A stretch of 64,000 bases of DNA from a virus (lineage: Duplodnaviria; Heunggongvirae; Uroviricota; Caudoviricetes), in the IMG/VR virus record IMGVR_UViG_3300032116_000094, positions 1-64,000 of that record. One strand, given 5' to 3'. Shown one piece after another: positions 1 through 44,167 of this stretch. Both the position numbers and the translations under genes were made by a program. Within the stretch, counting starts at the first letter, position 1. Each line of letters begins with the position of its first letter. A model generated the notes under the pieces. The model saw only the letters and a list, made by a program, of their open reading frames with translations, made no database searches and was not told the DNA's origin.

Positions 1-177
1 GAAGTATACTATAACTATGAATTTAGAGACAAAATTTGTAAGTTAATTCGTTTAAAAAAGGTTGATTTTGAAATACTTCTGAGCAAATGGGTTGAAGATA
101 CCTTTCAAATGAAGGTTAAGACCATCGCTTCCGAGTATCCTTTCGCCTCAAAGCTGTTGAAGATACCAACCAAATAA
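1..177 (+). CDS. Array-A paralog, 3' partial (5' end upstream of window)
   Basis: In frame from nt 1. Nt 1-128 are identical to 343-470 of unit 190..516. Unique tail AS EYPFASK then LKIPTK*, stop TAA 175-177. Confidence 0.6.
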   Translation, partial: EVYYNYEFRDKICKLIRLKKVDFEILLSKWVEDTFQMKVKTIASEYPFASKLLKIPTK

Positions 178-189
178 AATCCAAATAAC

Positions 190-516
190 ATGAGCAAAGA
201 AGAATATTATAGTAAAATAAAAAAAATTGTTTACCGAAAGTTTGACGAACTGGAAGTGGTTGAACGTAACGATGGAGACGACATATATCTTCATTATAAA
301 AATAATAGATATGCTGAAATCCTAATTAAGAAAAAATCAGGTGAAGTATACTATAACTATGAATTTAGAGACAAAATTTGTAAGTTAATTCGTTTAAAAA
401 AGGTTGATTTTGAAATACTTCTGAGCAAATGGGTTGAAGATACCTTTCAAATGAAGGTTAAGACCATCGACGTAACCGATGTATTGCTCTATTTTCTGGT
501 TGAAGATACCAACTAA
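190..516 (+). CDS. Array-A paralog unit 1 (~108 aa; conserved body + unique C-terminal tail)
   Basis: ORF. N-term MSKEEYYSKIKK. WVEDTFQMKV motif. Tail KTIDVTDVLLYFL then VEDTN*. Confidence 0.7.
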   Translation: MSKEEYYSKIKKIVYRKFDELEVVERNDGDDIYLHYKNNRYAEILIKKKSGEVYYNYEFRDKICKLIRLKKVDFEILLSKWVEDTFQMKVKTIDVTDVLLYFLVEDTN

Positions 517-532
517 ATAAAAACTAAATGAT

Positions 533-862
533 ATGAGCAAAGAAGAATATTATAATAAAATAAAAAAATTAATTTACAGAAAGTTTGATGAACTAGAGGT
601 ATTCAAAAGTACTAATGGAAAGAAAATATATCTTCATTATAAAAATAGTGAATATGCAAATATCCTAATTAATAAAAAATCAGGTGAAGTATACTATCAT
701 TATAATTTTAGAGACAAATTTTTTTATACAATTCGTTTAGAAAATGCTGATTTTCAAATATTCTTGAAAGGATGGATTGAAAATACCTTTCAAATTAAGG
801 TAAGTCACCCTGCTGTAATCCCAAGCCACCTGATTCGTTGGTTGAAGATACCAACTAAATAA
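533..862 (+). CDS. Array-A paralog unit 2
   Basis: ORF. MSKEEYY N-term. Tail SHPAVIPSHLIRW then LKIPTK* (R2 read in a different frame). Confidence 0.7.
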   Translation: MSKEEYYNKIKKLIYRKFDELEVFKSTNGKKIYLHYKNSEYANILINKKSGEVYYHYNFRDKFFYTIRLENADFQIFLKGWIENTFQIKVSHPAVIPSHLIRWLKIPTK

Positions 863-874
863 AATTTAGATAAC

Positions 875-1189
875 ATGAGCAAAGAAGAATATTATAGTAA
901 AATAAAAAGATTCGTTTATAAAAGGTTTAATGAGCTGGAAGTTATTGACCGTAATAATGGAAATTTTTTGTATCTTGGTTATAAAAACAAAGGTTATGCT
1001 GAGATTGTGATCGATAAAAACTCAGGTTTGGTTTACTACTATACTGGATTCAAAGATAAAATTAATAAGATGGTTCCGTTGAAAATGCGTGATTTTGAAA
1101 TTCTTTTGGATAGATGGGTTGAAGATACCTTTAAAATAAAAGTGATCAATACCCTGTGGTACAGTAATTATTCATGGTACCGAATTTGA
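875..1189 (+). CDS. Array-A paralog unit 3
   Basis: ORF. Tail INTLWYSNYSWYRI*. Stop falls inside R2 (third frame). Confidence 0.7.
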   Translation: MSKEEYYSKIKRFVYKRFNELEVIDRNNGNFLYLGYKNKGYAEIVIDKNSGLVYYYTGFKDKINKMVPLKMRDFEILLDRWVEDTFKIKVINTLWYSNYSWYRI

Positions 1190-1218
1190 AGATACATCCC
1201 AAATAAAATTTATATAAC

Positions 1219-1551
1219 ATGAGCAAAGAACAGTATTATAATAAAATAAAAATATTCATTTACAGAAAGTTTGAAGAACTGGAAGTGGTTGAACGTGATA
1301 AAGGAAATGTTTTGTATATTCGTTATAATAATGAAATATATGCCCAGATATTAATTGAAAAAAAATCAGGTAAGGTTTACTACTCTTATAGGTTAAGTAA
1401 AAAAATGTATAAAATAATCCCGTTGGAAACGACTGATTTTGAGTTATTTTTGAGCAAATGGATTGAAAATACTTTTCAAGTGAAGGTAAAACAAATCTTA
1501 CATGGCAAAAAAACACGATCACGTGCTTGGCTAAAAATACCTTTAAAATAA
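1219..1551 (+). CDS. Array-A paralog unit 4
   Basis: ORF. MSKEQYY N-term. First ~90 nt identical to unit 1564..1902. Tail KQILHGKKTRSRAW then LKIPLK. Confidence 0.7.
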   Translation: MSKEQYYNKIKIFIYRKFEELEVVERDKGNVLYIRYNNEIYAQILIEKKSGKVYYSYRLSKKMYKIIPLETTDFELFLSKWIENTFQVKVKQILHGKKTRSRAWLKIPLK

Positions 1552-1563
1552 AATTTAGATAAC

Positions 1564-1902
1564 ATGAGCAAAGAACAGTATTATAATAAAATAAAAATAT
1601 TCATTTACAGAAAGTTTGAAGAACTGGAAGTGGTTGAACGTGATAAAGGAAATTATTTGTATCTTCGTCACAAAAATGACGAATTCGTTCAAATCATGAT
1701 TGATAAAAAATCTAGTTTGGTTTACTACTATACTAAATTCAGAGATAAAATTAATAAGATAGTTCGGTTGGAACAGACTGATTTTGAAATTCTTTTGAAG
1801 AGATGGGTTGAAGATACATTTAAAATAAAGGTGATCAATATCAAGATGAGGTTTTCACGGTGGAGCCCGATGGATGAACATAACTTTAAGATAAAATTTT
1901 AA
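1564..1902 (+). CDS. Array-A paralog unit 5
   Basis: ORF. Tail INIKMRFSRWSPMDEHNF then KIKF. Confidence 0.7.
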   Translation: MSKEQYYNKIKIFIYRKFEELEVVERDKGNYLYLRHKNDEFVQIMIDKKSSLVYYYTKFRDKINKIVRLEQTDFEILLKRWVEDTFKIKVINIKMRFSRWSPMDEHNFKIKF

Positions 1903-1906
1903 TAAA

Positions 1907-2221
1907 ATGAGTAAAGAAGAGTATTATAGTAAAATAAAAAGATTTGTTTACCGAAAGTTTAATGAATTGGAAGTGGTTGAACGTAATCTTGGCGATGCTT
2001 TGTTTCTTCGTTATAATAATGAACCATATGCTCAGATCCGAATTAATATAAAATCGGGTAATGTTTACTATTATCGTAACTTTAGAAACAAATTTATTAA
2101 GGTAATTCATATGGAAAATAGTGATTTTGAAATACTTTTGGGCAAATGGATTGAAGAAACCTTTCAAATTAAGGTTAGCGACATTATACCCCAAAAATAC
2201 ACCATTATACTCATTGATTGA
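1907..2221 (+). CDS. Array-A paralog unit 6
   Basis: ORF. Tail SDIIPQKYTIILID. Confidence 0.7.
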   Translation: MSKEEYYSKIKRFVYRKFNELEVVERNLGDALFLRYNNEPYAQIRINIKSGNVYYYRNFRNKFIKVIHMENSDFEILLGKWIEETFQIKVSDIIPQKYTIILID

Positions 2222-2250
2222 AGATACCTTCCAAATAAAAACTAAGTAAC

Positions 2251-2589
2251 ATGAGCAAAGAAGAATATTATAGTAAAATAAAAAGATTTGTTTACAGAAA
2301 GTTTGATGAACTGGAAGTAACTGAACGTAATAAACGAAATGACTTGTATCTTCATTATAAAAATAACGAATATGCTGAAATCCTAATTAAGAAAAAATCA
2401 GGTGAAGTATACTATAACTATAACTATGAACTTAGTGACAAATTTTTTATGACAATTAATTTAGAAAAGGTTGATTTTGAAATACTTCTGGGCAGATGGG
2501 TTGAAGATACCTTTCAAATGAAGGTGAATCACACCCATGAGTGCGTACTCGTGATCGAGCATATGATGTTGAAGATACCTTTCAAATAA
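2251..2589 (+). CDS. Array-A paralog unit 7
   Basis: ORF. Tail NHTHECVLVIEHMM then LKIPFK. Confidence 0.7.
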   Translation: MSKEEYYSKIKRFVYRKFDELEVTERNKRNDLYLHYKNNEYAEILIKKKSGEVYYNYNYELSDKFFMTINLEKVDFEILLGRWVEDTFQMKVNHTHECVLVIEHMMLKIPFK

Positions 2590-2601
2590 AATTTAGATAA
2601 C

Positions 2602-2937
2602 ATGAGCAAAGAAGAATATTATAGTAAAATAAAAAGATTTGTTTACCGAAAGTTTGACGAACTGGAAGTGATTCATAGTAGTCATAACAATGATTTGTAT
2701 ATTCGCTATAAAAATGATAAATATGCACAGATCGTAATCGGAAAAACAACTGGGTTTATTTTTTATTATTATGAATTTAAAGACAAAATTTGTAATATCA
2801 TTCAGTTGGAAACGCGTGATTTTAAAATACTTTTAGAACGATGGGTTCAAGATACTTTTCAAATAAAAGTGGAGCTCACTGTTAAAATTGATTACATGAG
2901 CGGTCTGCTCGTTGAAGATACCAATAAAATAACTTAA
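2602..2937 (+). CDS. Array-A paralog unit 8
   Basis: ORF. Tail ELTVKIDYMSGLL then VEDTNKIT. Confidence 0.7.
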   Translation: MSKEEYYSKIKRFVYRKFDELEVIHSSHNNDLYIRYKNDKYAQIVIGKTTGFIFYYYEFKDKICNIIQLETRDFKILLERWVQDTFQIKVELTVKIDYMSGLLVEDTNKIT

Positions 2938-2942
2938 ATGAC

Positions 2943-3272
2943 ATGAGTAAAGATAGGTTATATAAAGGAATAAAAAATATCATTTATCGGGAAATTGATT
3001 CGCTGCAAGTTAGCGAACGTAATGATGGAATTTACGTTTATCTTCATTATAAAAATCCTGACCGTGCTCAGATTGTAATTGAAAAAAATTCGGGTTGGGT
3101 TTTCTATTATTATAGATTCAAAGACAAAATTTTTAAGAAAATTCCGCTGGAAAACCGTGATTTTGAAATACTTTTAGAGCAATGGGTTGAAGATAAATTT
3201 CAAATAAAAGTGACCGGCATCTGGAGATCGAAGTTTCTTTCAATGGCTGCATTGAATATACCTCCCAAATAA
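2943..3272 (+). CDS. Array-A paralog unit 9
   Basis: ORF. MSKDRLY N-term. Tail TGIWRSKFLSMAAL then NIPPK. Tail is near-identical to the next unit. Confidence 0.7.
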   Translation: MSKDRLYKGIKNIIYREIDSLQVSERNDGIYVYLHYKNPDRAQIVIEKNSGWVFYYYRFKDKIFKKIPLENRDFEILLEQWVEDKFQIKVTGIWRSKFLSMAALNIPPK

Positions 3273-3284
3273 AAATTAAATGAT

Positions 3285-3614
3285 ATGAGCAAAAAGGAAT
3301 ATTATAGTAAAATAAAAAGATTTGTTTACAGAAGGTTTGATGAACTGGAAGTGGCTGAAGGTGATAATGGGAATATTTTGTGTTTTGGTTATAAAAACAA
3401 AGGTTATGCGGAGATTGTGATCTATAAAAACTCAGGTCGGGTTTTCTATTCTAAAAGATTCAGAGACAAAATTAATAAGATATTTCGGTTTGAAGAGATT
3501 GATTTTAAAATTTTTTTGAAGAAATGGGTTGAAGATAAATTTAAAATAAAAGTGACCGGCGTCTGGATATCGAAGTTTCTTTCAATGGCAGCATTGAATA
3601 TGCCACCCAAATAA
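3285..3614 (+). CDS. Array-A paralog unit 10
   Basis: ORF. Tail TGVWISKFLSMAAL then NMPPK (recent duplicate of unit 9 tail). Confidence 0.7.
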   Translation: MSKKEYYSKIKRFVYRRFDELEVAEGDNGNILCFGYKNKGYAEIVIYKNSGRVFYSKRFRDKINKIFRFEEIDFKIFLKKWVEDKFKIKVTGVWISKFLSMAALNMPPK

Positions 3615-3626
3615 AAATTAAATGAC

Positions 3627-3971
3627 ATGAGTAAAGAAAAATATTACAACAAAATAAAAAGATACATTTACAGAAAGTTTGAGGAACTGGAGGTATTCGA
3701 AAGTAATGATGGAAATTATTTGTATCTTCGTTACAAACATGCTGAATTTGCTAAAATAGTGGTTAATAAAAGCTTACTTAAAGTTTCCTACTATACTGGA
3801 TTCAGAGATAAAATTAATAAGATAGTTCCGTTGGAAAAACGTGATTTTGAAATTCTATTGAAGAGATGGATTAAAGATACATTTCAAATGAAGATGAAAA
3901 ATGCCAACGCGATAAAGTACGCAGAGGTGCTGCTAGTCGTTGAAGATACTTTTAAAATAAAATTTAGATAA
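3627..3971 (+). CDS. Array-A paralog unit 11
   Basis: ORF. Tail KNANAIKYAEVLLV then VEDTFKIKFR (R2 read in frame a through to KFR*). Confidence 0.7.
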   Translation: MSKEKYYNKIKRYIYRKFEELEVFESNDGNYLYLRYKHAEFAKIVVNKSLLKVSYYTGFRDKINKIVPLEKRDFEILLKRWIKDTFQMKMKNANAIKYAEVLLVVEDTFKIKFR

Positions 3972-3972
3972 C

Positions 3973-4296
3973 ATGAGCAAAGAACAGTATTATAATAAAA
4001 TAAAAAGGTACATTTACAGAAAGTTTGATGAACTGGAAGTGATTAATAAAGGAGCTTATGTGTATCTTCGTTATAAAAACGATGATTATGCCGACATCCT
4101 AATTCGAAAAGAATTAGGTTATGTTTACTATTATTCTGGATTTAAAAAGAAAATTATTAATATAACCCGGTTGGAGACACGTGATTTTGAAATACTTCTG
4201 TACAGATGGATTGAAAATACCCTTCAAATAAAGGTTAATGAGATCTATTCTAAGGGTGGAGAAACCTTCGACAGATTTGAGATTCCTTTCAAATAA
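3973..4296 (+). CDS. Array-A paralog unit 12
   Basis: ORF. Tail NEIYSKGGETFDRFE then IPFK. Confidence 0.7.
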   Translation: MSKEQYYNKIKRYIYRKFDELEVINKGAYVYLRYKNDDYADILIRKELGYVYYYSGFKKKIINITRLETRDFEILLYRWIENTLQIKVNEIYSKGGETFDRFEIPFK

Positions 4297-4308
4297 AATT
4301 TTAATGAT

Positions 4309-4638
4309 ATGAAAAAAGAAGAATATTATAATAAAATAAAAAGATTGGTTTATAGAAAGTTTAACGAACTGGAATTGGTTGAACGTAATAATCGAAATGA
4401 GTTGTATCTTCGTTATAAAAATGGTGACTCCGCTCAAATCATGATCAATAAAAACTCAGGTTGGGTTTACTATTTTAGAAGATTCAGATACAAAATTGAT
4501 AACATGATTCGGTTGGAACAGGATGATTTTGAAATACTTCTAACTAAATGGGTTGAAGATACCTTTAAAATAAAGGTGATCAACACCCATTGCACCGGGT
4601 TCGTTCACCAATTTCCGTTGAAGATACCTTTAAAATAA
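4309..4638 (+). CDS. Array-A paralog unit 13 (followed by a second repeat-spacer module)
   Basis: ORF. Tail INTHCTGFVHQFP then LKIPLK. Downstream 4617-4716 holds another full repeat plus an unrelated spacer. Confidence 0.7.
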   Translation: MKKEEYYNKIKRLVYRKFNELELVERNNRNELYLRYKNGDSAQIMINKNSGWVYYFRRFRYKIDNMIRLEQDDFEILLTKWVEDTFKIKVINTHCTGFVHQFPLKIPLK

Positions 4639-4716
4639 AGGTGATCAACACCATACAGCGGCTGTACTCAAATATATTGCAGGTTGAAGATACCCTTCAA
4701 ATAAAATTTAAATAAC
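4552..4716 (+). repeat. Repeat-spacer-repeat-spacer-repeat module at the 3' end of unit 13
   Basis: gttgaagatacctttaaaataaaggtgatcaaca occurs exactly twice (4552-4585, 4617-4650). A degenerate third copy is at 4683-4706. Intervening segments of 31 and 32 nt are unrelated. Confidence 0.85.
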
Positions 4717-5046
4717 ATGAGCAAAGAACAGTATTATAATAAAATAAAAAAATTCGTGTACAGAAAGTTTGACGAACTGGAAGTGAGCAAACGTAATCTT
4801 GGAAACGATATATTTCTTCATTATAACAATGCGAAATATGATCAGATCCTAATTCAAAAAAAATCGGGTTATATTTACTATCAATCTAAATATAGAGATA
4901 AAATTATTAAACCAATAGCATTGGAAAATGTTGATTTTGAAATACTTTTAAAGCGATGGGTTGAAGATACCTTTCAAATGAAAGTTAATGACACCGGGCT
5001 CAAGTATATGAGCAACGCCACAGAGTTAAAGAAACCTCCCAAATAA
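4717..5046 (+). CDS. Array-A paralog unit 14
   Basis: ORF. Tail NDTGLKYMSNATE then LKKPPK. Confidence 0.7.
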   Translation: MSKEQYYNKIKKFVYRKFDELEVSKRNLGNDIFLHYNNAKYDQILIQKKSGYIYYQSKYRDKIIKPIALENVDFEILLKRWVEDTFQMKVNDTGLKYMSNATELKKPPK

Positions 5047-5058
5047 AAATTAAATGAT

Positions 5059-5403
5059 ATGAGTAAAGAAGACTATTACAGCAAAATAAAAAGATACATT
5101 TACAGAAAGTTTGAGGAACTGGAGGTATTTGAAAGTAGTGATGGAAATGAGATATACCTTTATTATAAAGGTGAAAAATATGCTGAGATCCGAGCTAAAA
5201 GAACTGTAGGTGAACTAATCTATTATTATGGGTTTAGCAACAAAATTATTAAGCCAATTCCTATAGAAAATCGTGATTTTGAAATACTTTTGAGGGTATT
5301 TATTGAAGATACATTTCAAATGAAAGTTAATGAAATCTATGGCTGGGATGGACACAAGACTATCACCGCGTTAAGAATACCTTACAGGTTAAAAGATAAC
5401 TGA
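5059..5403 (+). CDS. Array-A paralog unit 15
   Basis: ORF. Tail NEIYGWDGHKTITA then LRIPYRLKDN. Confidence 0.7.
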   Translation: MSKEDYYSKIKRYIYRKFEELEVFESSDGNEIYLYYKGEKYAEIRAKRTVGELIYYYGFSNKIIKPIPIENRDFEILLRVFIEDTFQMKVNEIYGWDGHKTITALRIPYRLKDN

Positions 5404-5404
5404 T

Positions 5405-5737
5405 ATGAATAAAGAAAAATATTATAATAAAATAAAAAAGTACATTTACAGAAAGTTTAATGAATTAGAAGTTATTGAACGTGATAATGGGAACGACATA
5501 TATCTTCGGTATAAAAATGATGATTATGCTAAGATCCTAGTTAAAAGAAATTCAGGTGAAGTAATTTATTATTATAGATTTAGAAGCAAAATTCTTAAGC
5601 CAATCCCTATAGAAAAGCGTGATTTTGAAATACTTTTGAGCAGATGGGTTGAAGATAAATTCAAAATTAAGGTTAACTATATCCTAATTTTGTCTCCAGG
5701 GTCATTCACAATCAGGTTAAAAATACCTCCCAAATAA
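5405..5737 (+). CDS. Array-A paralog unit 16
   Basis: ORF. MNKEKYY N-term. Tail NYILILSPGSFTIR then LKIPPK. Confidence 0.7.
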   Translation: MNKEKYYNKIKKYIYRKFNELEVIERDNGNDIYLRYKNDDYAKILVKRNSGEVIYYYRFRSKILKPIPIEKRDFEILLSRWVEDKFKIKVNYILILSPGSFTIRLKIPPK

Positions 5738-5749
5738 AAATTAAATGAT

Positions 5750-6064
5750 ATGAGAAAAGAAAAATATTATAATATAATAAAAAAGTACATCTACAGAAAG
5801 TTTGATGTACTGGAAGTGGTTAAACGTAATGATGGCAATACTTTGTATCTTCGTTATAAAAATAACGAATATGCTGAAATCATAATTAATAAAAAATTTG
5901 GCGAAGTATACTATTATTCTGAATATAAGAAGAAAATTTGTTATATGATTGGCATTAATCAGGTTGATTTTGAAATACTTTTGAAGAGCTGGGTTGAAGA
6001 AACCTTTCAAATGAAGGTGAGTTACACCTCAGGAAGTTTTGGTGTTAATTGGCTTGTTCGTTGA
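5750..6064 (+). CDS. Array-A paralog unit 17
   Basis: ORF. Tail SYTSGSFGVNWLVR. Confidence 0.7.
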   Translation: MRKEKYYNIIKKYIYRKFDVLEVVKRNDGNTLYLRYKNNEYAEIIINKKFGEVYYYSEYKKKICYMIGINQVDFEILLKSWVEETFQMKVSYTSGSFGVNWLVR

Positions 6065-6093
6065 AGATACCTTTCAAATAAAAATTAAATGAT

Positions 6094-6423
6094 ATGAGCA
6101 AAGAAGAATATTATAGTAAAATAAAAAAAATCATTTACAGAAAGTTTGACGAACTGGAAGTGGTTAAACGTAATAGAGGAAATAATTTGTATCTTCGTTA
6201 TAAAAATGAAGAATACGCTCAGATTCGAATTAATAAAAAATCAGATTTTGTTTACTATTCTTATACTTTAAGTGACAAAATTTGTAAGATATTTCAGTTG
6301 GAAAAGCGTGATTTTGAAATAATCTTAAGGGCCTGGATTGAAGATACCTTTAAAATTAAACAAATACTTATCCAAAGATGTAATGTGCTGCTGTCATCAA
6401 CGTTGTACATACCTTTGAAATAA
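6094..6423 (+). CDS. Array-A paralog unit 18
   Basis: ORF. Tail QILIQRCNVLLSSTLY then IPLK. Confidence 0.7.
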   Translation: MSKEEYYSKIKKIIYRKFDELEVVKRNRGNNLYLRYKNEEYAQIRINKKSDFVYYSYTLSDKICKIFQLEKRDFEIILRAWIEDTFKIKQILIQRCNVLLSSTLYIPLK

Positions 6424-6435
6424 AAATTCAATGAT

Positions 6436-6777
6436 ATGAGCAAAGAAAAGTATTATAATAAAATAAAAAGATTCATTTATAAAAGGTTTAATGAATTGGA
6501 ACTGATTGAACGTAATAATGGAGAGTATTTGTATCTTCGTTATAAAAATGAAGAATACGCTCAAATCAAGATTAATAAAAAATCAGGTAGGGTTCTTTAT
6601 TATTTTAGATTCAGAAACAAAATTTGTAAGACAATTAGTTTGGAAAAGACTGATTTTGAAATACTTCTGAGCAAATGGGTTGAAGATACCTTTCAAATAA
6701 AAATGATCAGCACCGCTGTACGGACACTGAAACAATCAATGTTGGTTGAAAATACCAACCAAATAAAACTTAAATGA
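6436..6777 (+). CDS. Array-A paralog unit 19
   Basis: ORF. Tail ISTAVRTLKQSML then VENTNQIKLK. Confidence 0.7.
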   Translation: MSKEKYYNKIKRFIYKRFNELELIERNNGEYLYLRYKNEEYAQIKINKKSGRVLYYFRFRNKICKTISLEKTDFEILLSKWVEDTFQIKMISTAVRTLKQSMLVENTNQIKLK

Positions 6778-6778
6778 T

Positions 6779-7093
6779 ATGGATAAAGAAGAATATTATA
6801 ATAAAATAAAAAGATTCATTTATAAAAGGTTTAATGAATTGGAAGTGATTGAACATAATAACGGAAATCTTATATATCTTCATTATAAAAATGAAGGTCA
6901 TGTTGAGGTCATAATTCAAAAAGAATTTGGTAGTGTTTTAAATTACTATAAATTCAGACAAAAAATTTGTAAAATGGTTGACTTGAAAGTGGTTGATTTT
7001 GAAATACTTTTGAACAGATGGGTTGAAGATACCTTAAAAATAAAGGTTGTACGCAACTCAGAATTTGACTTTAAAGTTGTGTTTTCTGGTTGA
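6779..7093 (+). CDS. Array-A paralog unit 20
   Basis: ORF. MDKEEYY N-term. Tail VRNSEFDFKVVFSG. Confidence 0.7.
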   Translation: MDKEEYYNKIKRFIYKRFNELEVIEHNNGNLIYLHYKNEGHVEVIIQKEFGSVLNYYKFRQKICKMVDLKVVDFEILLNRWVEDTLKIKVVRNSEFDFKVVFSG

Positions 7094-7122
7094 AGATGCC
7101 TCCAAAATAAAACTTAAATGAT

Positions 7123-7422
7123 ATGGATAAAGAAGAGTATTATAATAAAATAAAAAATTGGGTGTACAGGAAGTTTGATGAGCTTGAACCACACAAAATT
7201 TATAGTGAGGACACAATATGCCTTCGTTATAAAAATAATAAATATACTCAGATCATAATTAACAAAAAATTAGGCGATGTAGTCTATTATACAGACTACA
7301 GAAACAAAATTTGTAAGCCTATTAGATTGCTACGAGATGATTTTGATATCCTTCTGAGCGAATGGATTGAAGATAGATTTAAAATCAAGGTTACTGACAT
7401 GGCCGGTAGATACTTTTTATAG
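7123..7422 (+). CDS. Array-A paralog unit 21
   Basis: ORF. Tail TDMAGRYFL. Confidence 0.65.
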   Translation: MDKEEYYNKIKNWVYRKFDELEPHKIYSEDTICLRYKNNKYTQIIINKKLGDVVYYTDYRNKICKPIRLLRDDFDILLSEWIEDRFKIKVTDMAGRYFL

Positions 7423-7465
7423 TTGATGAACGTTAAATATGCCTCCAAAATAAAACTTAAATAAT

Positions 7466-7804
7466 ATGGATAAAGAAAAATATTATAATAAAATAAAAAA
7501 ATGGATATATGAAAAGTTCAATGGGCTGAATATATATGAAAGTTATAATGGAAGCACAATATATCTTCATTATAAAAATGATGACCAAGTTCAGATCAAA
7601 ATTAGAAAAAATAGTGGCATAATTCAGTATTATAATGGTTTTATGGATAAAATTATTAAACCAATTTCTTTGAATCCTAATGATTTCGAAATACTCCTAG
7701 GCAGATGGGTTGAAGAAAAGTTTAAAACAGATGTTATTCACATCCGGTCTATTGGTGTTGTGCGTGTTCTGTTTGTTGAACATAAATTCAAAAGGAAAAT
7801 TTAA
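7466..7804 (+). CDS. Array-A paralog unit 22
   Basis: ORF. Tail IHIRSIGVVRVLF then VEHKFKRKI. Confidence 0.65.
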   Translation: MDKEKYYNKIKKWIYEKFNGLNIYESYNGSTIYLHYKNDDQVQIKIRKNSGIIQYYNGFMDKIIKPISLNPNDFEILLGRWVEEKFKTDVIHIRSIGVVRVLFVEHKFKRKI

Positions 7805-7815
7805 TTAAATTAATC

Positions 7816-8127
7816 ATGGATAAAGAAAAATTTTATAATAAAATAAAAATTTGGATATACAGAAAGTTTGATGAACTGGAAGTTAGTGAAAGCTCCGATG
7901 GGACAATAATATGCCTTCGTTACAAAGATAATGCTTACATTCAGGTCAGTATTGAAAAAACATACAACCAAATTATCTATAATGCCGCTTTCAGGGACAA
8001 TATTTCTAAGCTGATTCGATTGCAAAAGCGTGACTTTGAAACACTTCTAAGCAATTGGATTAAAAAGACCTTTAAAATGAAAGTGGCCACCATCATTCCG
8101 GGGTATACAGGTACATTATGTTATTGA
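7816..8127 (+). CDS. Array-A paralog unit 23
   Basis: ORF. Tail ATIIPGYTGTLCY. Confidence 0.65.
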   Translation: MDKEKFYNKIKIWIYRKFDELEVSESSDGTIICLRYKDNAYIQVSIEKTYNQIIYNAAFRDNISKLIRLQKRDFETLLSNWIKKTFKMKVATIIPGYTGTLCY

Positions 8128-8162
8128 AAAAACCTTTCAACTAAAAGTTAAATTATAATAAT

Positions 8163-8480
8163 ATGAGTAAAGAAGAATATTATGATAGAATAAAAAAATG
8201 GCTTTATATTAAGTTTGATGAACTGAAAGTAATTGAAAGCCTTAATGGAAATAACTTATTTTTTAAATATAAAAATCAAAAATATTGTGATATACGAATT
8301 CAAAAAAATTCAGGTATAGTTTTTTATTATTATATGTTTAGTGAGAAATTTTTTAACAGGATTCGTTTGAAAGAGGCTGATTTTGAAATAATTCTGAGCA
8401 AATGGATTGAAGATAGATTTAAAATTAAGGTAACTAAAATGGTTAAAAGGATCGTCGGAAGAGAAATCATTGTTGATTGA
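8163..8480 (+). CDS. Array-A paralog unit 24
   Basis: ORF. Tail TKMVKRIVGREIIVD. Confidence 0.65.
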   Translation: MSKEEYYDRIKKWLYIKFDELKVIESLNGNNLFFKYKNQKYCDIRIQKNSGIVFYYYMFSEKFFNRIRLKEADFEIILSKWIEDRFKIKVTKMVKRIVGREIIVD

Positions 8481-8517
8481 TACCTTTCAAGTGATGGCTA
8501 ATAATAAATAATACGGC

Positions 8518-8835
8518 ATGGATAAAGAACAATATTATAATAAAATAAAAAATTGGTTATCTAACAAGCTTGATAAGCTGTACATAATTGAAACCTCTGA
8601 AGGTACTTTATACCTATATAAAAAGAATGATGATTTTCCTCAGCTCCGGATTCATAAAAGTTCAGGCTTAGTTTGTTATTATATTGGATTCGCAAACGAT
8701 CTGCTTAAAAAGGTTCCAATGGGTATTATTGATTTTGAAATAATTCTGGGTGCATATATTGAAGATATTCTTGAAATTAAGGTGACTGTAATTTCCCCCC
8801 TTCCAACGGTGTATGATGTTGATGATAAATTCTAA
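8518..8835 (+). CDS. Array-A paralog unit 25
   Basis: ORF. Divergent body. Tail TVISPLPTVYDVDDKF. Confidence 0.65.
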   Translation: MDKEQYYNKIKNWLSNKLDKLYIIETSEGTLYLYKKNDDFPQLRIHKSSGLVCYYIGFANDLLKKVPMGIIDFEIILGAYIEDILEIKVTVISPLPTVYDVDDKF

Positions 8836-8857
8836 TTAACAGTATAAATATTTAAAT

Positions 8858-9172
8858 ATGGATAAAGAACAATATTATAATAGAATAAAAAAATGGGTTT
8901 ATGGAAAGTTTGATGAACTGGAAGTGATTAAAAGAAAGAAAGGGAGTAACGTGTATCTTCGTTATAAAAATGGCGAATATACTCAGGTTGAAATTGATAA
9001 AAAATTTGGTCATGTTTACTATTATTATGAATTCAGCGAGAAAATTTGTAAACATCTTCGCATTGAAAAGCATGACTTTGAAATACTTTTGAAAAGATGG
9101 GTCGAAGAGACCTTTCAAATGAAGGTGGATAATGTCATAATTTGTGTAGTACGTAGCCGCCCGATAGCTTAA
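8858..9172 (+). CDS. Array-A paralog unit 26
   Basis: ORF. Tail DNVIICVVRSRPIA. Confidence 0.65.
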   Translation: MDKEQYYNRIKKWVYGKFDELEVIKRKKGSNVYLRYKNGEYTQVEIDKKFGHVYYYYEFSEKICKHLRIEKHDFEILLKRWVEETFQMKVDNVIICVVRSRPIA

Positions 9173-9198
9173 TAAAGGTAAACTATAAATCTTTAAAT

Positions 9199-9525
9199 AT
9201 GGATAAAGAGCAATATTATAATAGCATAAAAAAATTGTTATATAAAAAGTTCGACGAGCTAAAATTATATGATAACCCTAATGGGCTTGTAAGTTATTTA
9301 CATTACGATAGAGATGATTACGCTCAGATCCTAATTTTTAAACACACAGGCCGAGTTTTTTATTATCATGGTTTCGCAAAGAAACTTTTTAAGTTTATTC
9401 GACTAGAATATGAAGATTTTGAAATACTCTTGGGTAGATGGGTTGAAGAAAAATTTAAAATACATGTGAAAAGTATCAGACAGACAACAGATGTCCGCAT
9501 ACCTGGTTTTAACTCTAATTTTTAA
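9199..9525 (+). CDS. Array-A paralog unit 27
   Basis: ORF. Tail KSIRQTTDVRIPGFNSNF. Confidence 0.65.
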   Translation: MDKEQYYNSIKKLLYKKFDELKLYDNPNGLVSYLHYDRDDYAQILIFKHTGRVFYYHGFAKKLFKFIRLEYEDFEILLGRWVEEKFKIHVKSIRQTTDVRIPGFNSNF

Positions 9526-9530
9526 ATGGC

Positions 9531-9824
9531 ATGTATAAAGAAAAATATCATAATAGCATAAAAAAATGGGTTTATAGCAAATTTGATGAACTGCACGTAA
9601 TCTCAAACTGTGAAGAAAATTTATATTTCGGTTATAAAAATGATTCTTTTTTTGTTATACGAATTTATAAAGCCACAGGTAATGTTTATTATACACATCG
9701 CTTGAGAGACCTAGTTAGTAAAAAACTTGCCTTAAATATCATTGATTTTGAGATTCTTTTACGTAGATGGATTGAAAGTAAATGTGAAATTAAAATAAAT
9801 AAAATCATTGACCTCCTTTTTTAA
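9531..9824 (+). CDS. Array-A paralog unit 28
   Basis: ORF. MYKEKYH N-term. Short tail NKIIDLLF. Confidence 0.6.
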   Translation: MYKEKYHNSIKKWVYSKFDELHVISNCEENLYFGYKNDSFFVIRIYKATGNVYYTHRLRDLVSKKLALNIIDFEILLRRWIESKCEIKINKIIDLLF

Positions 9825-9870
9825 TTTGTACATATCCCCCCCATTTTAGCTCCCCCAATTTATTTTTAAT

Positions 9871-9904
9871 TATTTGAATTTGTTAATTTTATCCTGTACC
9901 TTTG
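9871..9904 (+). promoter_or_regulatory. Internal Bacteroidetes-type promoter inside array A
   Basis: TTTG at 9873-9876. ~20-nt spacer. TAccTTTG at 9897-9904. ATG at 9914. Preceded by an unusual C-rich tract (9830-9860). Confidence 0.45.
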
Positions 9905-9913
9905 TTCTTTACT

Positions 9914-10219
9914 ATGAACGAAGATAAGCTATATACTATAACTCAAAAATGGTTACAAAGGAAACTTAGTAATCTGGTCGTATCTGAAGATATCGAAAAA
10001 ATATCACTTAAGCGTAAAGGTGATACTGACTCAACTATTGTGATCTATAAAAATCGTAATCTTGTTTGTTATTTAGGAGGATATAGAAATAAACTTACTA
10101 GTATGTTACCAATGAAAATCAGCCTATTTAATTTCTTATTGAAGAATTGGGTTAAAGATAATTATAACATTGAAATAATAGAAGTTTCCTCTAGTGCTAG
10201 CATGTACAATCATGGATAA
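9914..10219 (+). CDS. Array-A paralog, divergent subfamily (no duplicated R2)
   Basis: ORF 9902..10219. Start moved to ATG 9914 (MNEDKLYTI) because a TAccTTTG -7 box lies at 9897-9904. Motif NWVKDNYNIEI. Confidence 0.55.
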   Translation: MNEDKLYTITQKWLQRKLSNLVVSEDIEKISLKRKGDTDSTIVIYKNRNLVCYLGGYRNKLTSMLPMKISLFNFLLKNWVKDNYNIEIIEVSSSASMYNHG

Positions 10220-10553
10220 AGAAAAGCTATATAACATAGCCGGAAAATGGATTAATAATAAGTTCGATACTCTGGTGAAAGAACAAGACAATGAGCCATC
10301 TTGCATTACTCTGTGTTCTTGTCTCAACAATAAGACTATTATTCGAATTTACAAAAGTGATGGTTGTGTATGTTATAACGTAGATTACATGAAAAAAATA
10401 ATTAAGTTATTCCCCATGCAAATCGAAGATTTCGAATTACTGCTAAAAAAATGGGTACAATATAAATTTGATATTAAAGTAACTGAAGTCATAGCTTTTG
10501 ACTTGTTAATAGTTAACCCCCAAGTTAGTTATATGATTTATGCTCAAAGATAA
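10212..10553 (+). CDS. Array-A paralog, divergent subfamily
   Basis: ORF 10194..10553. Family-type start MDKEKLYNIAGKW at 10212. Overlaps previous stop by 8 nt. Confidence 0.55.
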   Translation: MDKEKLYNIAGKWINNKFDTLVKEQDNEPSCITLCSCLNNKTIIRIYKSDGCVCYNVDYMKKIIKLFPMQIEDFELLLKKWVQYKFDIKVTEVIAFDLLIVNPQVSYMIYAQR

Positions 10554-10836
10554 ATTATACCGTGTGGCTCAAAAATGGACCTACAGGAAGTTTAATAACC
10601 TGGGTGTATGGGAATCTGATCATGTTGTAGAACTTCGCCATGACGACGATCCTCGCATTACTATTCACATTTATAAAGAGCTTGAAAGGGTTTTTTATTA
10701 CGAAGATTACATGCAAAGGATCATTAATGTATTCCCCATGCAAATAGAAGACTTCGAATTGCTTTTATGTCAATGGATTGACGAAAAATTTAAAGTTAAA
10801 ATAAATAACATATATAGAATGAGATTCCGGCCATAA
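10540..10836 (+). CDS. Array-A paralog, divergent subfamily
   Basis: ORF. MLKDKLYRVAQKW..QWIDEKFKVKI. Overlaps previous unit by 14 nt. Confidence 0.55.
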   Translation: MLKDKLYRVAQKWTYRKFNNLGVWESDHVVELRHDDDPRITIHIYKELERVFYYEDYMQRIINVFPMQIEDFELLLCQWIDEKFKVKINNIYRMRFRP

Positions 10837-10873
10837 TATGAAGATGTTATATTTATTAAGATAAAAGATTATT

Positions 10874-11179
10874 ATGGATGATAAATTATATCTAGCGGCA
10901 AGAAGGGTTCTTTATAAGAAATTTGATGTGTTGTTCGTGAGAGAAGATGAGGATAAAATAGACCTTAGCCCTTACGACGACGAATATTCTGTAATTAGAA
11001 TATATAAAAAGTTCGGCATTGTTTATTATATGACAGATTTCAAGAAAAAAGTCATTCAAAAATTTCCGGTACCAAACGTTGATTTTGAAATACTTTTAAT
11101 TATGTGGGTCGAACATAAATTCGGAATTAAAGTTAAAAAAGTCAACAGCTACAGTTGGTATTTAAATGCTTTACTTTGA
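10874..11179 (+). CDS. Array-A paralog, divergent subfamily
   Basis: ORF. MDDKLYLAARR..DFEILLIMWVEHKFGIKV. Confidence 0.6.
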   Translation: MDDKLYLAARRVLYKKFDVLFVREDEDKIDLSPYDDEYSVIRIYKKFGIVYYMTDFKKKVIQKFPVPNVDFEILLIMWVEHKFGIKVKKVNSYSWYLNALL

Positions 11180-11221
11180 AGATATATTTCAGGCTATTGA
11201 ATCTTAAAAACATTTGCCAAT

Positions 11222-11521
11222 ATGAGTAAACTAAAATTTTATGTTAAAGCCGGGAGATGGTTTTATAATCAGTTTGAAAAGTTGACAATTGTCACTGAAC
11301 GCAAAGTTTTACATCTTCACACATATATTGATTTTAAATGCGATATTCGAATTTATCTAAATTATGGTGAAGTATTTTACGATGTAAATTATATGCACAA
11401 GTTGTTTAAACTGTTCCCGATATCACAATCCGACTTTGACACTATTTTAGCCAATTGGGTTGAAAATAAATTCAATATAAATGTGCGAATTATCCGGCCA
11501 TTCAATGAATCGGTTTATTAA
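11222..11521 (+). CDS. Array-A paralog, divergent subfamily
   Basis: ORF. ..SDFDTILANWVENKFNINV. Confidence 0.6.
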   Translation: MSKLKFYVKAGRWFYNQFEKLTIVTERKVLHLHTYIDFKCDIRIYLNYGEVFYDVNYMHKLFKLFPISQSDFDTILANWVENKFNINVRIIRPFNESVY

Positions 11522-11530
11522 AATAGTATT

Positions 11531-11830
11531 ATGAGTAAAGAACTATTATATCTTAAAACCAGGAGATGGTTTTACAAGAAATTTGATCAGTTGATTGTGA
11601 CTGTAGATGAAGATAATATAAATCTCAGTAGTAAAGATAATAAATCGAAATTTGTTCGGATTTATATATATGATGATGAGATTTTGGTATATTATTATAT
11701 TAGATTCAAATATCAGTTAACTAAAATAATACCATTAGAAAGATTGGACTTTGAATTTTTCTTGAAAGAATGGATCGAAGATAAATTCGGCCTAAAAATC
11801 GATTATGTATATGAAAGTGATTATAAGTAA
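11531..11830 (+). CDS. Array-A paralog, divergent subfamily
   Basis: ORF. Near-duplicate of 11857..12156. Ends ..WIEDKFGLKIDYVYESDYK. Confidence 0.6.
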   Translation: MSKELLYLKTRRWFYKKFDQLIVTVDEDNINLSSKDNKSKFVRIYIYDDEILVYYYIRFKYQLTKIIPLERLDFEFFLKEWIEDKFGLKIDYVYESDYK

Positions 11831-11856
11831 TATGGCCCAATCAAAGTATATGTTAT

Positions 11857-12156
11857 ATGAGCGAAAATAAGTTATATATTAAAGTCATAAGATGGTTTTA
11901 CATGAAATTTGATCAGTTGATTGTGACCGCAGATGAAAATCGTATAATCCTCAGTAGTAAAGATAATAAATCGAAATTTGTTCGGATTTATATATATGAT
12001 GATGAGATTTTGGTATATTATTATGCCGGATTCAGATATTATTTAACTAAAATAATACCATTAGAAACATCGGATTTTGAATTGTTCTTGGTAAAATGGA
12101 TCGAAGAGAAATTCGGCCTAAAAATCGATGATGTACGTGAAAGTGATTATAACTAA
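11857..12156 (+). CDS. Array-A paralog, divergent subfamily
   Basis: ORF. Near-duplicate of previous unit, including the shared intergenic block tatggcccaatcaaagtatatgttatATG. Confidence 0.6.
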   Translation: MSENKLYIKVIRWFYMKFDQLIVTADENRIILSSKDNKSKFVRIYIYDDEILVYYYAGFRYYLTKIIPLETSDFELFLVKWIEEKFGLKIDDVRESDYN

Positions 12157-12182
12157 TATGGCCCAATCAAAGTATATGTTAT

Positions 12183-12467
12183 ATGAGCGAAAATAAGTTA
12201 TATCTTAAAACCAGGAGATGGTTTTATAACCAATTTGATAAGTTGAAAGAATCTGAGGACACTGAAAAAATAGTGCTTAGGGATAAGCATGAGTTTTCTG
12301 TGGTCCGTATATATAAATCGGAAAAAGAAGCATTTTATTTCGTATTCTTCAGGTATGATCTGGTTAGTGTTATCCCTATTAAAAATGCAGATTTTGAAAT
12401 GTTTCTGAGAGAATGGATCGAAGATAAATTCAAAATAAAACTAACTAAAATGCACGTCAAAATCTAA
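12183..12467 (+). CDS. Array-A paralog, divergent subfamily
   Basis: ORF. ..DFEMFLREWIEDKFKIKL. Confidence 0.6.
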   Translation: MSENKLYLKTRRWFYNQFDKLKESEDTEKIVLRDKHEFSVVRIYKSEKEAFYFVFFRYDLVSVIPIKNADFEMFLREWIEDKFKIKLTKMHVKI

Positions 12468-12480
12468 GAAACACAGGATC

Positions 12481-12780
12481 ATGAAGAATGAAAAATCATA
12501 TATTAAAATCAGGAAATGGTTTTATCACAAGTTTGATATGCTGACGTTTTATACTACCAATGAAAAAATAAATCTTTTTGATATAGAAGAAGATTCTGTT
12601 ATACGAGTATATTTGATAAACAATGAAGGTGAAATCTTTTATTATGAAGATTTTATGCTTGATCTAGTTAAAATTATACCAATAAGTATCAACGACTTCG
12701 AACTGTTTTTAACATCCTGGATCGAAGATAAATTTAAAATAAAAGTAATTAAGATACACGCAAGTTCAATATCACAATAG
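12481..12780 (+). CDS. Array-A paralog, divergent subfamily
   Basis: ORF. ..DFELFLTSWIEDKFKIKV. Confidence 0.6.
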   Translation: MKNEKSYIKIRKWFYHKFDMLTFYTTNEKINLFDIEEDSVIRVYLINNEGEIFYYEDFMLDLVKIIPISINDFELFLTSWIEDKFKIKVIKIHASSISQ

Positions 12781-12819
12781 TCAAAAAATTTTTAAAATTA
12801 AACTAACAAATTAATTATT

Positions 12820-36669: not shown

Positions 36670-36685
36670 TAGTTTGTTGTGGTTT

Positions 36686-37582: not shown

Positions 37583-37603
37583 ATTTTTATTTAATAATTT
37601 TTA

Positions 37604-39465: not shown

Positions 39466-39493
39466 AATTTTTTAATACTATATTTATAAATAT

Positions 39494-42262: not shown

Positions 42263-42325
42263 AACCCGCTTTTAATTTTTAAATGTTTATGTATATACTT
42301 ATCAAGATACTCATATAGTGCGGTT

Positions 42326-43255: not shown

Positions 43256-43256
43256 A

Positions 43257-44156: not shown

Positions 44157-44167
44157 AAAAATATTGA

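Follow-up and report, generated by a model that had tools for sequence, protein, structure and literature searches.

A tandem array of paralogous genes of about 95-115 amino acids occupies positions 1 to 13125, on the plus strand, of the stretch of DNA analysed here, which comprises positions 1 to 64,000 of the IMG/VR virus record IMGVR_UViG_3300032116_000094 (Caudoviricetes) and is called the window below. The array has a period of about 342 nucleotides (nt) and consists of 38 complete units and a partial one. Up to about position 8850, the sequence with which the conserved part of the gene ends (the first repeat, R1) was followed in every unit by a short unique segment and then by a second, partly degenerate copy (the terminal repeat, R2), just where the initial annotation of this DNA had placed them. 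We consider it likely that each of these units is a phage-borne mini-array of the CRISPR type (clusters of regularly interspaced short palindromic repeats) fused to a protein-coding gene.

The window has a G+C content (GC) of about 28-30%, and its phage-type genes encode ThyX, an SLT lysozyme-like protein, a metallophosphatase and a DUF932 protein. The protein encoded by the units was found on a 277,584-bp metagenomic contig (L003) and on many shorter contigs, thus indicating that the window was derived from an AT-rich jumbo phage of about 277 kb. The window was compared with the related-strain loci L001, L002, L003, L004 and L011, the last being the IMG/VR contig of the window's own lineage. 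As seen in L003, the array begins about 1.6 kb before the left end of the window. On that side there is also another, divergently oriented array built from this gene family (L011 3445-6289, plus strand; L003 2525-4974, minus strand). It carries its own strain-specific spacers and is separated from the first array by a 210-amino-acid open reading frame (ORF; L011 2478-3110), for which no family match was found. More than 40 units, each a mini-array with its own gene, are present per genome.

The ORF stays open in every unit, which is very improbable by chance at 28% GC, and the pairwise ratio of non-synonymous to synonymous differences (pN/pS) of the unit genes was about 0.6. An AlphaFold (AF2) model made from the 38 paralogues had a predicted local distance difference test (pLDDT) score of 86; no informative structural or family match was obtained with the model or the sequence of the unit protein. 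In the predicted structure, the repeat overlaps the last helix and strand of the folded domain, and conservation of the protein (WVEDTFQIKVxx[IT]) stops exactly at nt 36 of R1.

Repeat-spacer anatomy of the units

R1 corresponds to the last 36 nt of the conserved coding sequence. In 25 units it was followed by a unique segment of 28-33 nt and then by R2. The repeat length, given as 24-34 nt in the initial annotation, had to be corrected to 36 nt, since the two copies in unit 13 (4552-4587 and 4617-4652) are exact over this length and the conserved part of the protein ends at nt 36. The unique segments reported between the repeats were indeed present; with the 36-nt boundary their length became 28-33 nt instead of 30-50 nt. 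These segments, referred to as spacers, gave an R1-to-R2 period of 64-69 nt over 26 window intervals, and one decayed unit (8758) deviated with a segment of 24 nt. Among 45 distinct spacers, the lengths were 29 nt (9 spacers), 30 nt (16), 31 nt (11), 32 nt (7) and 33 nt (1) and were, as had been noticed before, not confined to multiples of three. Overall, 81 distinct spacers were collected, 79 of them 29-32 nt long, one of 33 nt and one of 24 nt (decayed unit 25). They were mutually unrelated, save where units are duplicates of each other. Near-identical direct repeats (23-55 nt) at regular spacing are characteristic of CRISPR arrays, as are unique, unrelated spacers of uniform length, and both were found here, the repeats being exact in multi-spacer runs including those of L017, L023, L025 and L029. 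A CRISPR array is, moreover, a non-coding locus whose transcript is processed into CRISPR RNAs; in these units, by contrast, a conserved ORF contains both the first repeat and the spacers.

R2 was identical to the first approximately 20 nt of R1 at a mean of 15.0 of 20 positions, compared with 6.4 of 20 for background 20-mers of the same units. The duplication therefore passed the test that had been named for it, an excess similarity of R2 to R1. The last 16 nt of R2 resembled R1 at background level (6.2/16) and form the start region of the next gene. R1 and R2 of the same unit were no more similar than R1 and R2 of different units (p = 0.087). The degenerate half of R2 was homologous between units, which points to one ancient duplication that preceded the amplification of the units. 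The predicted stops in all three frames were seen directly in R2: TGA in gtTGAag, TAA in ..ACC AAC TAA and TAA in ..AAA TAA. All three frames were shut by the terminal repeat in two diverged repeat families.

The units at 9914-13125 had been described as lacking R2, and this was so for all units from 9199 to 13125 except for a remnant in unit 32 (TTTGAAGATATA at 11175, +67 nt from the R1 at 11108), which gave 11 of 14 matches, a score reached by 4 of 2000 random placements. Units 26-38 have either decayed or never acquired an array. That they look ancestral, as was suggested, is doubtful, since distant homologues in other phages also have the repeat-spacer-repeat tail. The features of the array were as follows.

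91-191, plus strand: unit 0 mini-array; repeat 91-126, spacer 127-155 (29 nt), terminal repeat 156-191
433-534, plus strand: unit 1 mini-array; repeat 433-468, spacer 469-498 (30 nt), terminal repeat 499-534
776-876, plus strand: unit 2 mini-array; repeat 776-811, spacer 812-840 (29 nt; a paralogous version with 7/29 differences in the paralogous unit at L003 6744), terminal repeat 841-876
1118-1220, plus strand: unit 3 mini-array; repeat 1118-1153, spacer 1154-1184 (31 nt), terminal repeat 1185-1220
1462-1565, plus strand: unit 4 mini-array; repeat 1462-1497, spacer 1498-1529 (32 nt), terminal repeat 1530-1565
1807-1908, plus strand: unit 5 mini-array; repeat 1807-1842, spacer 1843-1872 (30 nt), terminal repeat 1873-1908
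2150-2252, plus strand: unit 6 mini-array; repeat 2150-2185, spacer 2186-2216 (31 nt), terminal repeat 2217-2252
2500-2603, plus strand: unit 7 mini-array; repeat 2500-2535, spacer 2536-2567 (32 nt), terminal repeat 2568-2603
2845-2946, plus strand: unit 8 mini-array; repeat 2845-2880, spacer 2881-2910 (30 nt; identical copy in strain L001), terminal repeat 2911-2946
3186-3286, plus strand: unit 9 mini-array; repeat 3186-3221, spacer 3222-3250 (29 nt), terminal repeat 3251-3286
3528-3628, plus strand: unit 10 mini-array; repeat 3528-3563, spacer 3564-3592 (29 nt; nearly identical to that of unit 9, indicating a recent unit duplication), terminal repeat 3593-3628
3870-3974, plus strand: unit 11 mini-array; repeat 3870-3905, spacer 3906-3938 (33 nt), terminal repeat 3939-3974
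4210-4311, plus strand: unit 12 mini-array; repeat 4210-4245, spacer 4246-4275 (30 nt), degenerate terminal repeat 4276-4311
4552-4718, plus strand: unit 13 two-spacer array; exact repeats 4552-4587 and 4617-4652, mutually unrelated spacers 4588-4616 (29 nt) and 4653-4682 (30 nt), terminal repeat 4683-4718
4960-5060, plus strand: unit 14 mini-array; repeat 4960-4995, spacer 4996-5024 (29 nt), terminal repeat 5025-5060
5302-5405, plus strand: unit 15 mini-array; repeat 5302-5337, spacer 5338-5369 (32 nt), degenerate terminal repeat 5370-5405
5648-5751, plus strand: unit 16 mini-array; repeat 5648-5683, spacer 5684-5715 (32 nt), terminal repeat 5716-5751
5993-6095, plus strand: unit 17 mini-array; repeat 5993-6028, spacer 6029-6059 (31 nt), terminal repeat 6060-6095
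6337-6437, plus strand: unit 18 mini-array; repeat 6337-6372, spacer 6373-6401 (29 nt), terminal repeat 6402-6437
6679-6780, plus strand: unit 19 mini-array; repeat 6679-6714, spacer 6715-6744 (30 nt), terminal repeat 6745-6780
7022-7124, plus strand: unit 20 mini-array; repeat 7022-7057, spacer 7058-7088 (31 nt), terminal repeat 7089-7124
7366-7467, plus strand: unit 21 mini-array; repeat 7366-7401, spacer 7402-7431 (30 nt; among the few with an in-frame stop), terminal repeat 7432-7467
7709-7810, plus strand: unit 22 mini-array; diverged repeat 7709-7744, spacer 7745-7774 (30 nt), degenerate terminal repeat 7775-7810
8059-8158, plus strand: unit 23 mini-array; diverged repeat 8059-8094, spacer 8095-8122 (28 nt), degenerate terminal repeat 8123-8158
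8406-8507, plus strand: unit 24 mini-array; diverged repeat 8406-8441, spacer 8442-8471 (30 nt), degenerate terminal repeat 8472-8507
8758-8853, plus strand: unit 25, decayed mini-array; repeat-like sequence 8758-8793, segment 8794-8817 (24 nt), remnant repeat 8818-8853 (11/14 match to the consensus at +60)
8858-13125, plus strand: units 26-38, without a second repeat; the gene ends shortly past the R1-homologous codons
11108-11194, plus strand: unit 32; R1 homologue at 11108, repeat remnant TTTGAAGATATATTTCAGGC at 11175 (+67 nt)

The ORF of unit 13 ends within the second repeat, read in the 'LKIPLK*' frame (window 4638-4716), and about 78 nt are untranslated between its stop and the next ATG. 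The homologue of this unit was left uncalled by gene callers in L004-L006. A sigma-70 promoter scan of the array returned only periodic matches within the coding repeat.

The inserts had been described as GC-richer than their surroundings, and GC was 0.44 for the spacers of the window and 0.45 for 45 distinct spacers taken together, compared with 0.28 for the array. Recent spacers did not stand out from shared ones by a higher GC (0.48 vs 0.46). The repeat differed from the gene bodies in codon usage: the Thr codon ACC was used at 14 of 19 positions in R1 and at 1 of 28 in gene bodies (p = 4e-7), and the Lys codon AAG at 14 of 24 and 56 of 270, respectively (p = 1.6e-4). R1 thus keeps codons that are avoided in the gene bodies, indicating that it is constrained as nucleic acid and not as protein alone.

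Stop codons in the ORF frame were found in 4 of 45 spacers of the window lineage, while each of the five other frames had stops in 13-20 of the 45. Among the spacers of other lineages the corresponding figures were 4 of 36 in the ORF frame and 15 and 17 in the two other forward frames. The depletion (combined, 8/81 in the ORF frame vs 67/162 in the two other forward frames, p = 1.7e-7) was thus seen in each of two independent sets of spacers. Taken with the stops that the terminal repeat provides in three frames, it indicates that translation through the spacer matters, which could be for the sake of the peptide or of orderly termination just before the next start in a dense operon. The tails themselves showed no sign of purifying selection.

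Insertion, inheritance and source of the spacers

Exact 36-nt repeats around unrelated spacers were found in the window (4552-4718) and at L001 5502-5668, L002 10587-10754 and L003 7773-7941, with two spacers each. L001 4098-4398 contained a run of four spacers with exact 36-nt repeats. The two gene-proximal repeats of this run carried a G4A variant (GTTAAAG) that the two distal repeats did not, as expected if the gene-proximal repeat is the copied one. Such repeat-variant gradients were seen in both L001 and L023. In the same unit of L002 and L003, the distal spacer (ctgccgaaaacgg...) was common to both strains whereas the gene-proximal spacers differed. Comparison of strains thus revealed polarised addition at the leader end together with a degenerate terminal repeat, as in CRISPR arrays.

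Judging from unit 13 and the runs of L001, L002, L003 and L023, new insertions appear to copy the full 36-nt R1 gene-proximally, and R2 appears to be a shared, half-degenerate terminal repeat that is inherited with the unit. The initial annotation was therefore borne out in regarding the unique segments as insertions bracketed by a duplicated repeat, and not as products of point-mutational divergence, whereas its proposal that R2 was made at each insertion did not hold.

Differences between and within strains were also seen at the level of whole units. The body end and R1 of unit 0 (window 1 to ~127) were identical to those of unit 1 (343 to ~469), and the two proteins were identical beyond about the first 25 residues, whereas the two spacers were unrelated. 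Unit 0 and its spacer (GCTTCCGAG..., 127-155) were missing in L003 and present in the window, L004 and L011 (window 1-533 vs L003 7751-8283). With this extra unit relative to the 277-kb contig L003, the array length is polymorphic between co-occurring strains.

In orthologous units of L001 and L003 or the window, the same spacer was present with 0-5 point changes, and strain-specific units held unique spacers and multi-spacer runs. From these comparisons, spacers seem to be inherited like any other sequence, new ones coming by insertion. The all-or-none replacement predicted between strains was accordingly seen, but orthologous spacers also showed graded differences. The unit 11 orthologues (L001 1456-1785 vs L003 11377-11721) had 243-nt bodies with 100% identity and spacers that differed at 5 of 33 positions; four of the five changes were synonymous in the ORF frame, and the terminal repeats differed as well. 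The L001 unit nearest to unit 13 had a body with 96.6% identity, was located elsewhere in the array and contained the first spacer only, with 4 changes. In the other orthologous and paralogous spacer pairs, a manual count showed mainly non-synonymous differences, so individual tails do not look conserved.

A profile search with the unit protein found only 60 clusters in 1.84 billion representatives, and the most distant homologues still ended in tails of the repeat, variable and 'L[KR]IP.K' type. L017 contained GTTGAGAATGCCCTACAGATGAGAGTCACAGATACC twice in exact form, with unrelated 30-nt spacers and a degenerate third copy; L017, L018 and L019 each had their own exact 36-nt repeats and unique spacers of 29-31 nt. 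Using a degenerate repeat pattern, 22 loci were identified in IMG/VR, distributed over 20 viral contigs with lengths reaching 294 kb; one of these contigs was L011 and the other 19 were additional. Nearly all of them showed ...AGATGG, the 36-nt repeat, a unique segment of 29-31 nt and a terminal repeat (typically GTTGAGAATACCTAACTAAT), with runs of up to four spacers and stops again in three frames of the terminal repeat. Every related locus that was scanned with the unit-protein profile held at least one homologue, and the fusion of gene and repeat was kept even where the protein was detectable by profile only. The design of gene plus array, as far as can be judged from these sequences, is conserved across diverged phages, with repeats that have co-diverged.

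The origin of one spacer could be traced. The metagenome protospacer scan covered a single spacer, the proximal one of L002 (TATTTGGCTCTGAAGAGTACTGTGAGTATG), which gave a 30/30 match in a non-array context. This protospacer lies inside the choice-of-anchor-L domain of a gene for a 1066-amino-acid protein sorted by the type IX secretion system (T9SS), on contigs with a GC of 0.51-0.52. On L043 the gene is near purL and a SusC/RagA gene. Its homologues were labelled as Saprospiraceae, Saprospirales, Lewinellaceae or Bacteroidota metagenome-assembled genomes, some on contigs of more than 1 Mb. The GC, the neighbouring genes and the homologues together point to the chromosome of a Saprospiraceae-like member of the Bacteroidota as the source, which is very probably the chromosome of the host. 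Copying of spacers from foreign DNA, another feature of CRISPR arrays, was thus observed for one spacer; the frame in which this spacer is read is not that of its source gene. Neither the window nor 363 kb of related loci yielded self-targets. A second apparent protospacer (sp42, 19/31, beside the real one) was dropped, since its score was within the range of shuffled sequences.

Proteins with C-terminal sorting domains of the T9SS (Por_Secre_tail, CHU_C) and with PKD and MopE motifs were found in related huge phages, and the T9SS-sorted proteins are an independent pointer to Bacteroidota hosts. These phages also encode a full-length Hsp70; the T9SS, PKD, MopE and Hsp70 loci are L024 2667-3674, L025 8025-9035 (minus strand), L034 5036-6601 (minus strand) and L025 2569-4437 (minus strand).

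Neighbouring features of the window

Just right of the gene array, Rfam gave a tRNA match of 42.5 bits (13433-13563, minus strand) that spans 131 nt and for which ARAGORN made no call; it may be a tRNA with an insertion or intron. A full-length GOLLD RNA (231 bits; gathering score 150) was located at 49707-50134 (minus strand), about 420 nt from a tRNA-Met gene (50551-50623, minus strand). The neighbouring ORFs 13619-14086 and 14875-15711 (both minus strand) share the module '[RK]YTDL.PN..VK...D..I[IV]R.G..N', which is N-terminal in one of them and in the middle of the protein in the other; no family match was found for either. A 274-amino-acid ORF (34872-35696, minus strand) contained the core of a class II aminoacyl-tRNA synthetase (tRNA-synt_2, E = 4.5e-8) without the anticodon-binding part. 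A second multigene family consists of 11 tandem ORFs of about 300-320 amino acids (35743-45127, minus strand), one of which (44168-45127) was tested and had no match in Pfam, PADLOC or PHROG.

Proposed mechanism, rival explanations and biological meaning

Spacer integration of the CRISPR type, one of the processes first suggested for this locus, is what the exact 36-nt repeats, the 29-33-nt spacers, the polarised strain differences and the 30/30 foreign protospacer argue for. In the mechanism that we propose, the AT-rich gene body would serve as the leader and the 36 nt with which the conserved coding sequence ends (GTTGAAGATACCTTTCAAATGAAGGTGAATCACACC, encoding VEDTFQ[MI]KVxx[IT]) as the first repeat. 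An integrase of the Cas1-Cas2 type would place a foreign fragment of about 30 nt at the junction of gene and repeat and duplicate the 36-nt repeat. We infer this type of integration because the geometry matches that of the adaptation module of Bacteroidota II-C and VI-B systems. The integrase would most likely be that of the Bacteroidota host and act in trans, as type II-C adaptation proteins do on VI-B arrays that lack cas1 and cas2. Recombination between repeats would drop older spacers, so that usually one spacer (up to four) and the old terminal repeat are left. The terminal repeat would have retained the spacer-proximal ~20 nt, the rest having become the three-frame stops and the start region of the next gene. 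As the array lies within the ORF, each spacer would be translated as a tail of about 10 amino acids, in a frame set by the spacer length.

Several observations weigh against this interpretation. No cas gene was identified among 30 ORFs of the window (Pfam), 8 ORFs analysed with PADLOC, the ORF between the arrays and the 10 largest ORFs flanking the IMG/VR loci; the sequence available for this search made up about one quarter of the phage genome. No array with this repeat was found in 185,579 representative genomes of GTDB, where the exact repeat core had 0 matches and the pattern of repeat end, spacer and repeat start gave 3 single matches attributable to chance. An association with cas genes, in cis or through a host array, was therefore absent from the sequence scanned. 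No direct-repeat (DR) family for CRISPR in Rfam scored above threshold; the best, DR49, reached 18.5 bits (gathering score 41; E = 1.3) on the minus strand of L001 only, and L017-L019 had no such match. First repeats differ between units by up to ~9/36 nt, above what is usual for a working array, and where a unit holds just one spacer, only one of the two repeats flanking it is good. The hairpin of the repeat was weakly supported, with 77% of cells paired compared with up to 63% in shifted controls, a full stem in 21 of 62 repeats and weak covariation of CC (positions 11-12) with GG (24-25; p = 0.19). Only 1 protospacer was found; 0 of 6 individual spacers matched IMG/VR beyond the arrays themselves, and 0 of 81 (45 and then 36, concatenated) matched GenBank phages.

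Virus-borne mini-arrays and the cas-less arrays of huge phages also lack adaptation genes and are presumed to use host Cas proteins, and some of their spacers match the host chromosome (Medvedeva et al. 2019; Al-Shayeb et al. 2020; PMC6858448, PMC7162821). The units described here are similar in being short repeat-spacer arrays on a virus, with no adaptation gene found in the sequence scanned. Unlike those arrays, they are situated in a protein-coding gene, the first repeat encoding its conserved C-terminus and the spacers lying in the ORF; one genome holds more than 40 separate arrays of one to four spacers, and in every array the 'leader' is a gene of its own; the terminal repeat serves both to stop translation in three frames and as the region where the next gene starts; and no similarity to a known host repeat was found. 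Compact cas-less arrays and mini-arrays on viruses and the targeting of host chromosomes by phage spacers are therefore already known. The ORF-fused array with translated spacers, the presence of more than 40 mini-arrays per genome and the dual role of the terminal repeat are new, and we found no literature report of repeat-spacer arrays in coding genes, tens per genome, that are conserved with co-diverging repeats across a clade of huge phages.

The closest geometry is that of Bacteroidota arrays. The II-C and VI-B arrays of F. columnare have 36-bp repeats and spacers of 28-32 bp (mostly 30) and acquire spacers in trans, many VI-B spacers being derived from the host's own genome; arrays without their own cas1 and cas2 are filled by the integrase of another locus (Hoikkala et al. 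2021, PMC8092290). The units share with them the 36/30 geometry, the polarised insertion beside an AT-rich leader and the degenerate terminal repeat, and both the protospacer contig and the T9SS-sorted proteins of related phages point to a host from the Bacteroidota. They differ in being located in a phage ORF and not in a host cas locus, and the likeness to these subtypes consists of the geometry and the weak DR49 match. The plus-strand repeat may resemble the direct repeats of Cas13b. RNA anti-CRISPRs (Racrs) are phage mimics of CRISPR repeats that occur without cas genes; they are non-coding, are placed downstream of a promoter and share an identity of at least 90% with a repeat of the host (Camara-Wilpert et al. 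2023, PMC10651486). By analogy, the many repeat copies found here could sequester host Cas proteins; in contrast to Racrs and other solitary repeat units, however, the repeat is coding, is followed by spacers and had no counterpart in the GTDB representatives.

As to function, we weakly favour a role at the RNA level with host Cas proteins, in which the units, much like the virus-borne arrays or Racrs described above, would supply guides directed at the host or at competitors, or decoy CRISPR RNAs or repeats, during infection. Stop avoidance and the frame-proof terminal repeat would then, again with weak confidence, be damage control that keeps translation and downstream expression going despite recurrent insertions. 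Another explanation is that huge Bacteroidota phages domesticated CRISPR-type integration for protein diversity, so that a scaffold family changes its C-terminal peptide of about 10 amino acids, more than 40 such peptides are encoded, the avoidance of in-frame stops reflects selection on them, and the terminal repeat evolved its stops for that purpose. The stop depletion confined to the ORF frame in two independent spacer sets would fit, as would the three-frame closure in two diverged repeat families, the overlap of the repeat with the last helix and strand of a confidently folded domain, the gene-repeat fusion persisting where the protein is detectable by profile only, and the one orthologous spacer pair with mostly synonymous differences. 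But the DNA from which the peptides derive is arbitrary, and so is the frame in which it is read, the mapped spacer being out of the frame of its source gene; the other spacer pairs, counted manually, differ mainly at non-synonymous sites, with individual tails not conserved; and stop avoidance and frame-proof termination are equally expected if selection only protects translation of the operon. We regard this explanation as possible but rather unlikely, although the data do not separate an RNA-level role from protein diversification. A conserved scaffold with a hypervariable C-terminal stretch, which mobile elements or multigene families encode, is also known from diversity-generating retroelements and from families of ribosomally synthesised and post-translationally modified peptides (RiPPs). 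The units differ from both in having no template repeat with A-specific mutagenesis and in the all-or-none replacement by foreign 30-mers.

The insertions might also be accidental. Cas1-Cas2 is said to integrate off target at sites resembling a leader-repeat junction, duplicating the adjacent stretch and creating a new array ('neo-CRISPR', reportedly described by Nivala and co-workers in 2018). The gene 3' end would then resemble such a junction to the host integrase, and the insertions would be neutral or slightly harmful scars. That no cas genes were found nearby, that the mapped spacer comes from an ordinary host surface-protein gene and not from a competitor phage, and that first repeats are rather divergent between units would all agree with accident. 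However, the repeat is kept by otherwise avoided codons (ACC 14/19 vs 1/28), although simple synonymous changes would abolish its recognition. The design also persists in diverged lineages with co-diverged repeats, the terminal repeat is adapted to recurrent insertion, and the units were amplified to more than 40 copies per genome. A site that is conserved, nucleotide-constrained, amplified and common to diverged phages, unlike an off-target site, argues for maintenance and not accident. Functionless scars are disfavoured by this maintenance at the nucleotide level, the amplification and the conservation across lineages, and we consider them improbable.

Exchange of cassettes as in antigenic variation, with tails gene-converted from silent donors in the phage, would use R1 and R2 as homology arms, and the identical stretch of units 0 and 1 with its different tails does show conversion or unequal exchange in the array. 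Yet no second spacer copy outside an array context was present in 363 kb of sequence, and such exchange leaves both the multiplication of the repeat with each added segment and the bacterial source of a spacer unexplained, which makes it very improbable. Still harder to sustain is an account without insertion, in which the 3' end of the gene was duplicated internally long ago, all units inherited this duplication, and the sequence between the copies diverged rapidly under relaxed or diversifying selection. It would accommodate the homologous degenerate half of R2 and the point changes in orthologous spacers, but not unrelated segments flanked by identical 36-nt repeats, a narrow range of 29-33 nt regardless of reading frame, a GC of 0.45 where the genome has 0.28, gene-proximal segments that are specific to a strain next to a distal segment that strains share, or the 30/30 match to a bacterial gene. 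The RiPP precursor array suggested in the initial annotation, a long leader with a hypervariable core modified by neighbouring enzymes, has practically no probability left: the resemblance is limited to a superficial anatomy of ~90 conserved and 10-20 variable amino acids, the core is read in three frames, shows no sign of purifying selection and finishes with residues that the repeat encodes, captured DNA demonstrably makes up the variable part, and no family of radical S-adenosylmethionine (rSAM), LanM or YcaO type was found among the 30 window ORFs scanned with Pfam.

Other known systems were considered and rejected. The integron and cdi/rhs models proposed earlier fail on cassette size, the inserts being 29-33 nt long and not, as in integrons, the size of genes; no integrase family was found among the window ORFs scanned, attC sites not having been searched for. 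A diversity-generating retroelement was rejected, with no reverse transcriptase family among the window ORFs scanned and no second spacer copy in the window. TIGR-Tas arrays, which reportedly have 36-nt units with two ~9-nt spacers, were rejected on the period of 66 nt found here.

The preferred interpretation, a mini-CRISPR array fused to each gene, would mean that a substrate for Cas1-type integration can coexist with coding constraints and be shaped by them, as seen in the unusual codons, the frame-proof terminal repeat and the stop-free spacers. SRUFinder masks confident ORFs (PMC10651486) and would therefore miss ORF-embedded arrays. Given this blind spot of ORF-masking tools, similar systems may be common. 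The mapped spacer provides a direct phage-host link, from an uncultured jumbo phage to a Saprospiraceae-like chromosome. The finding raises the questions of whether phages divert or exploit the adaptation machinery of their hosts, whether they load host effectors with guides or decoys of their own, and whether spacer capture may diversify proteins.

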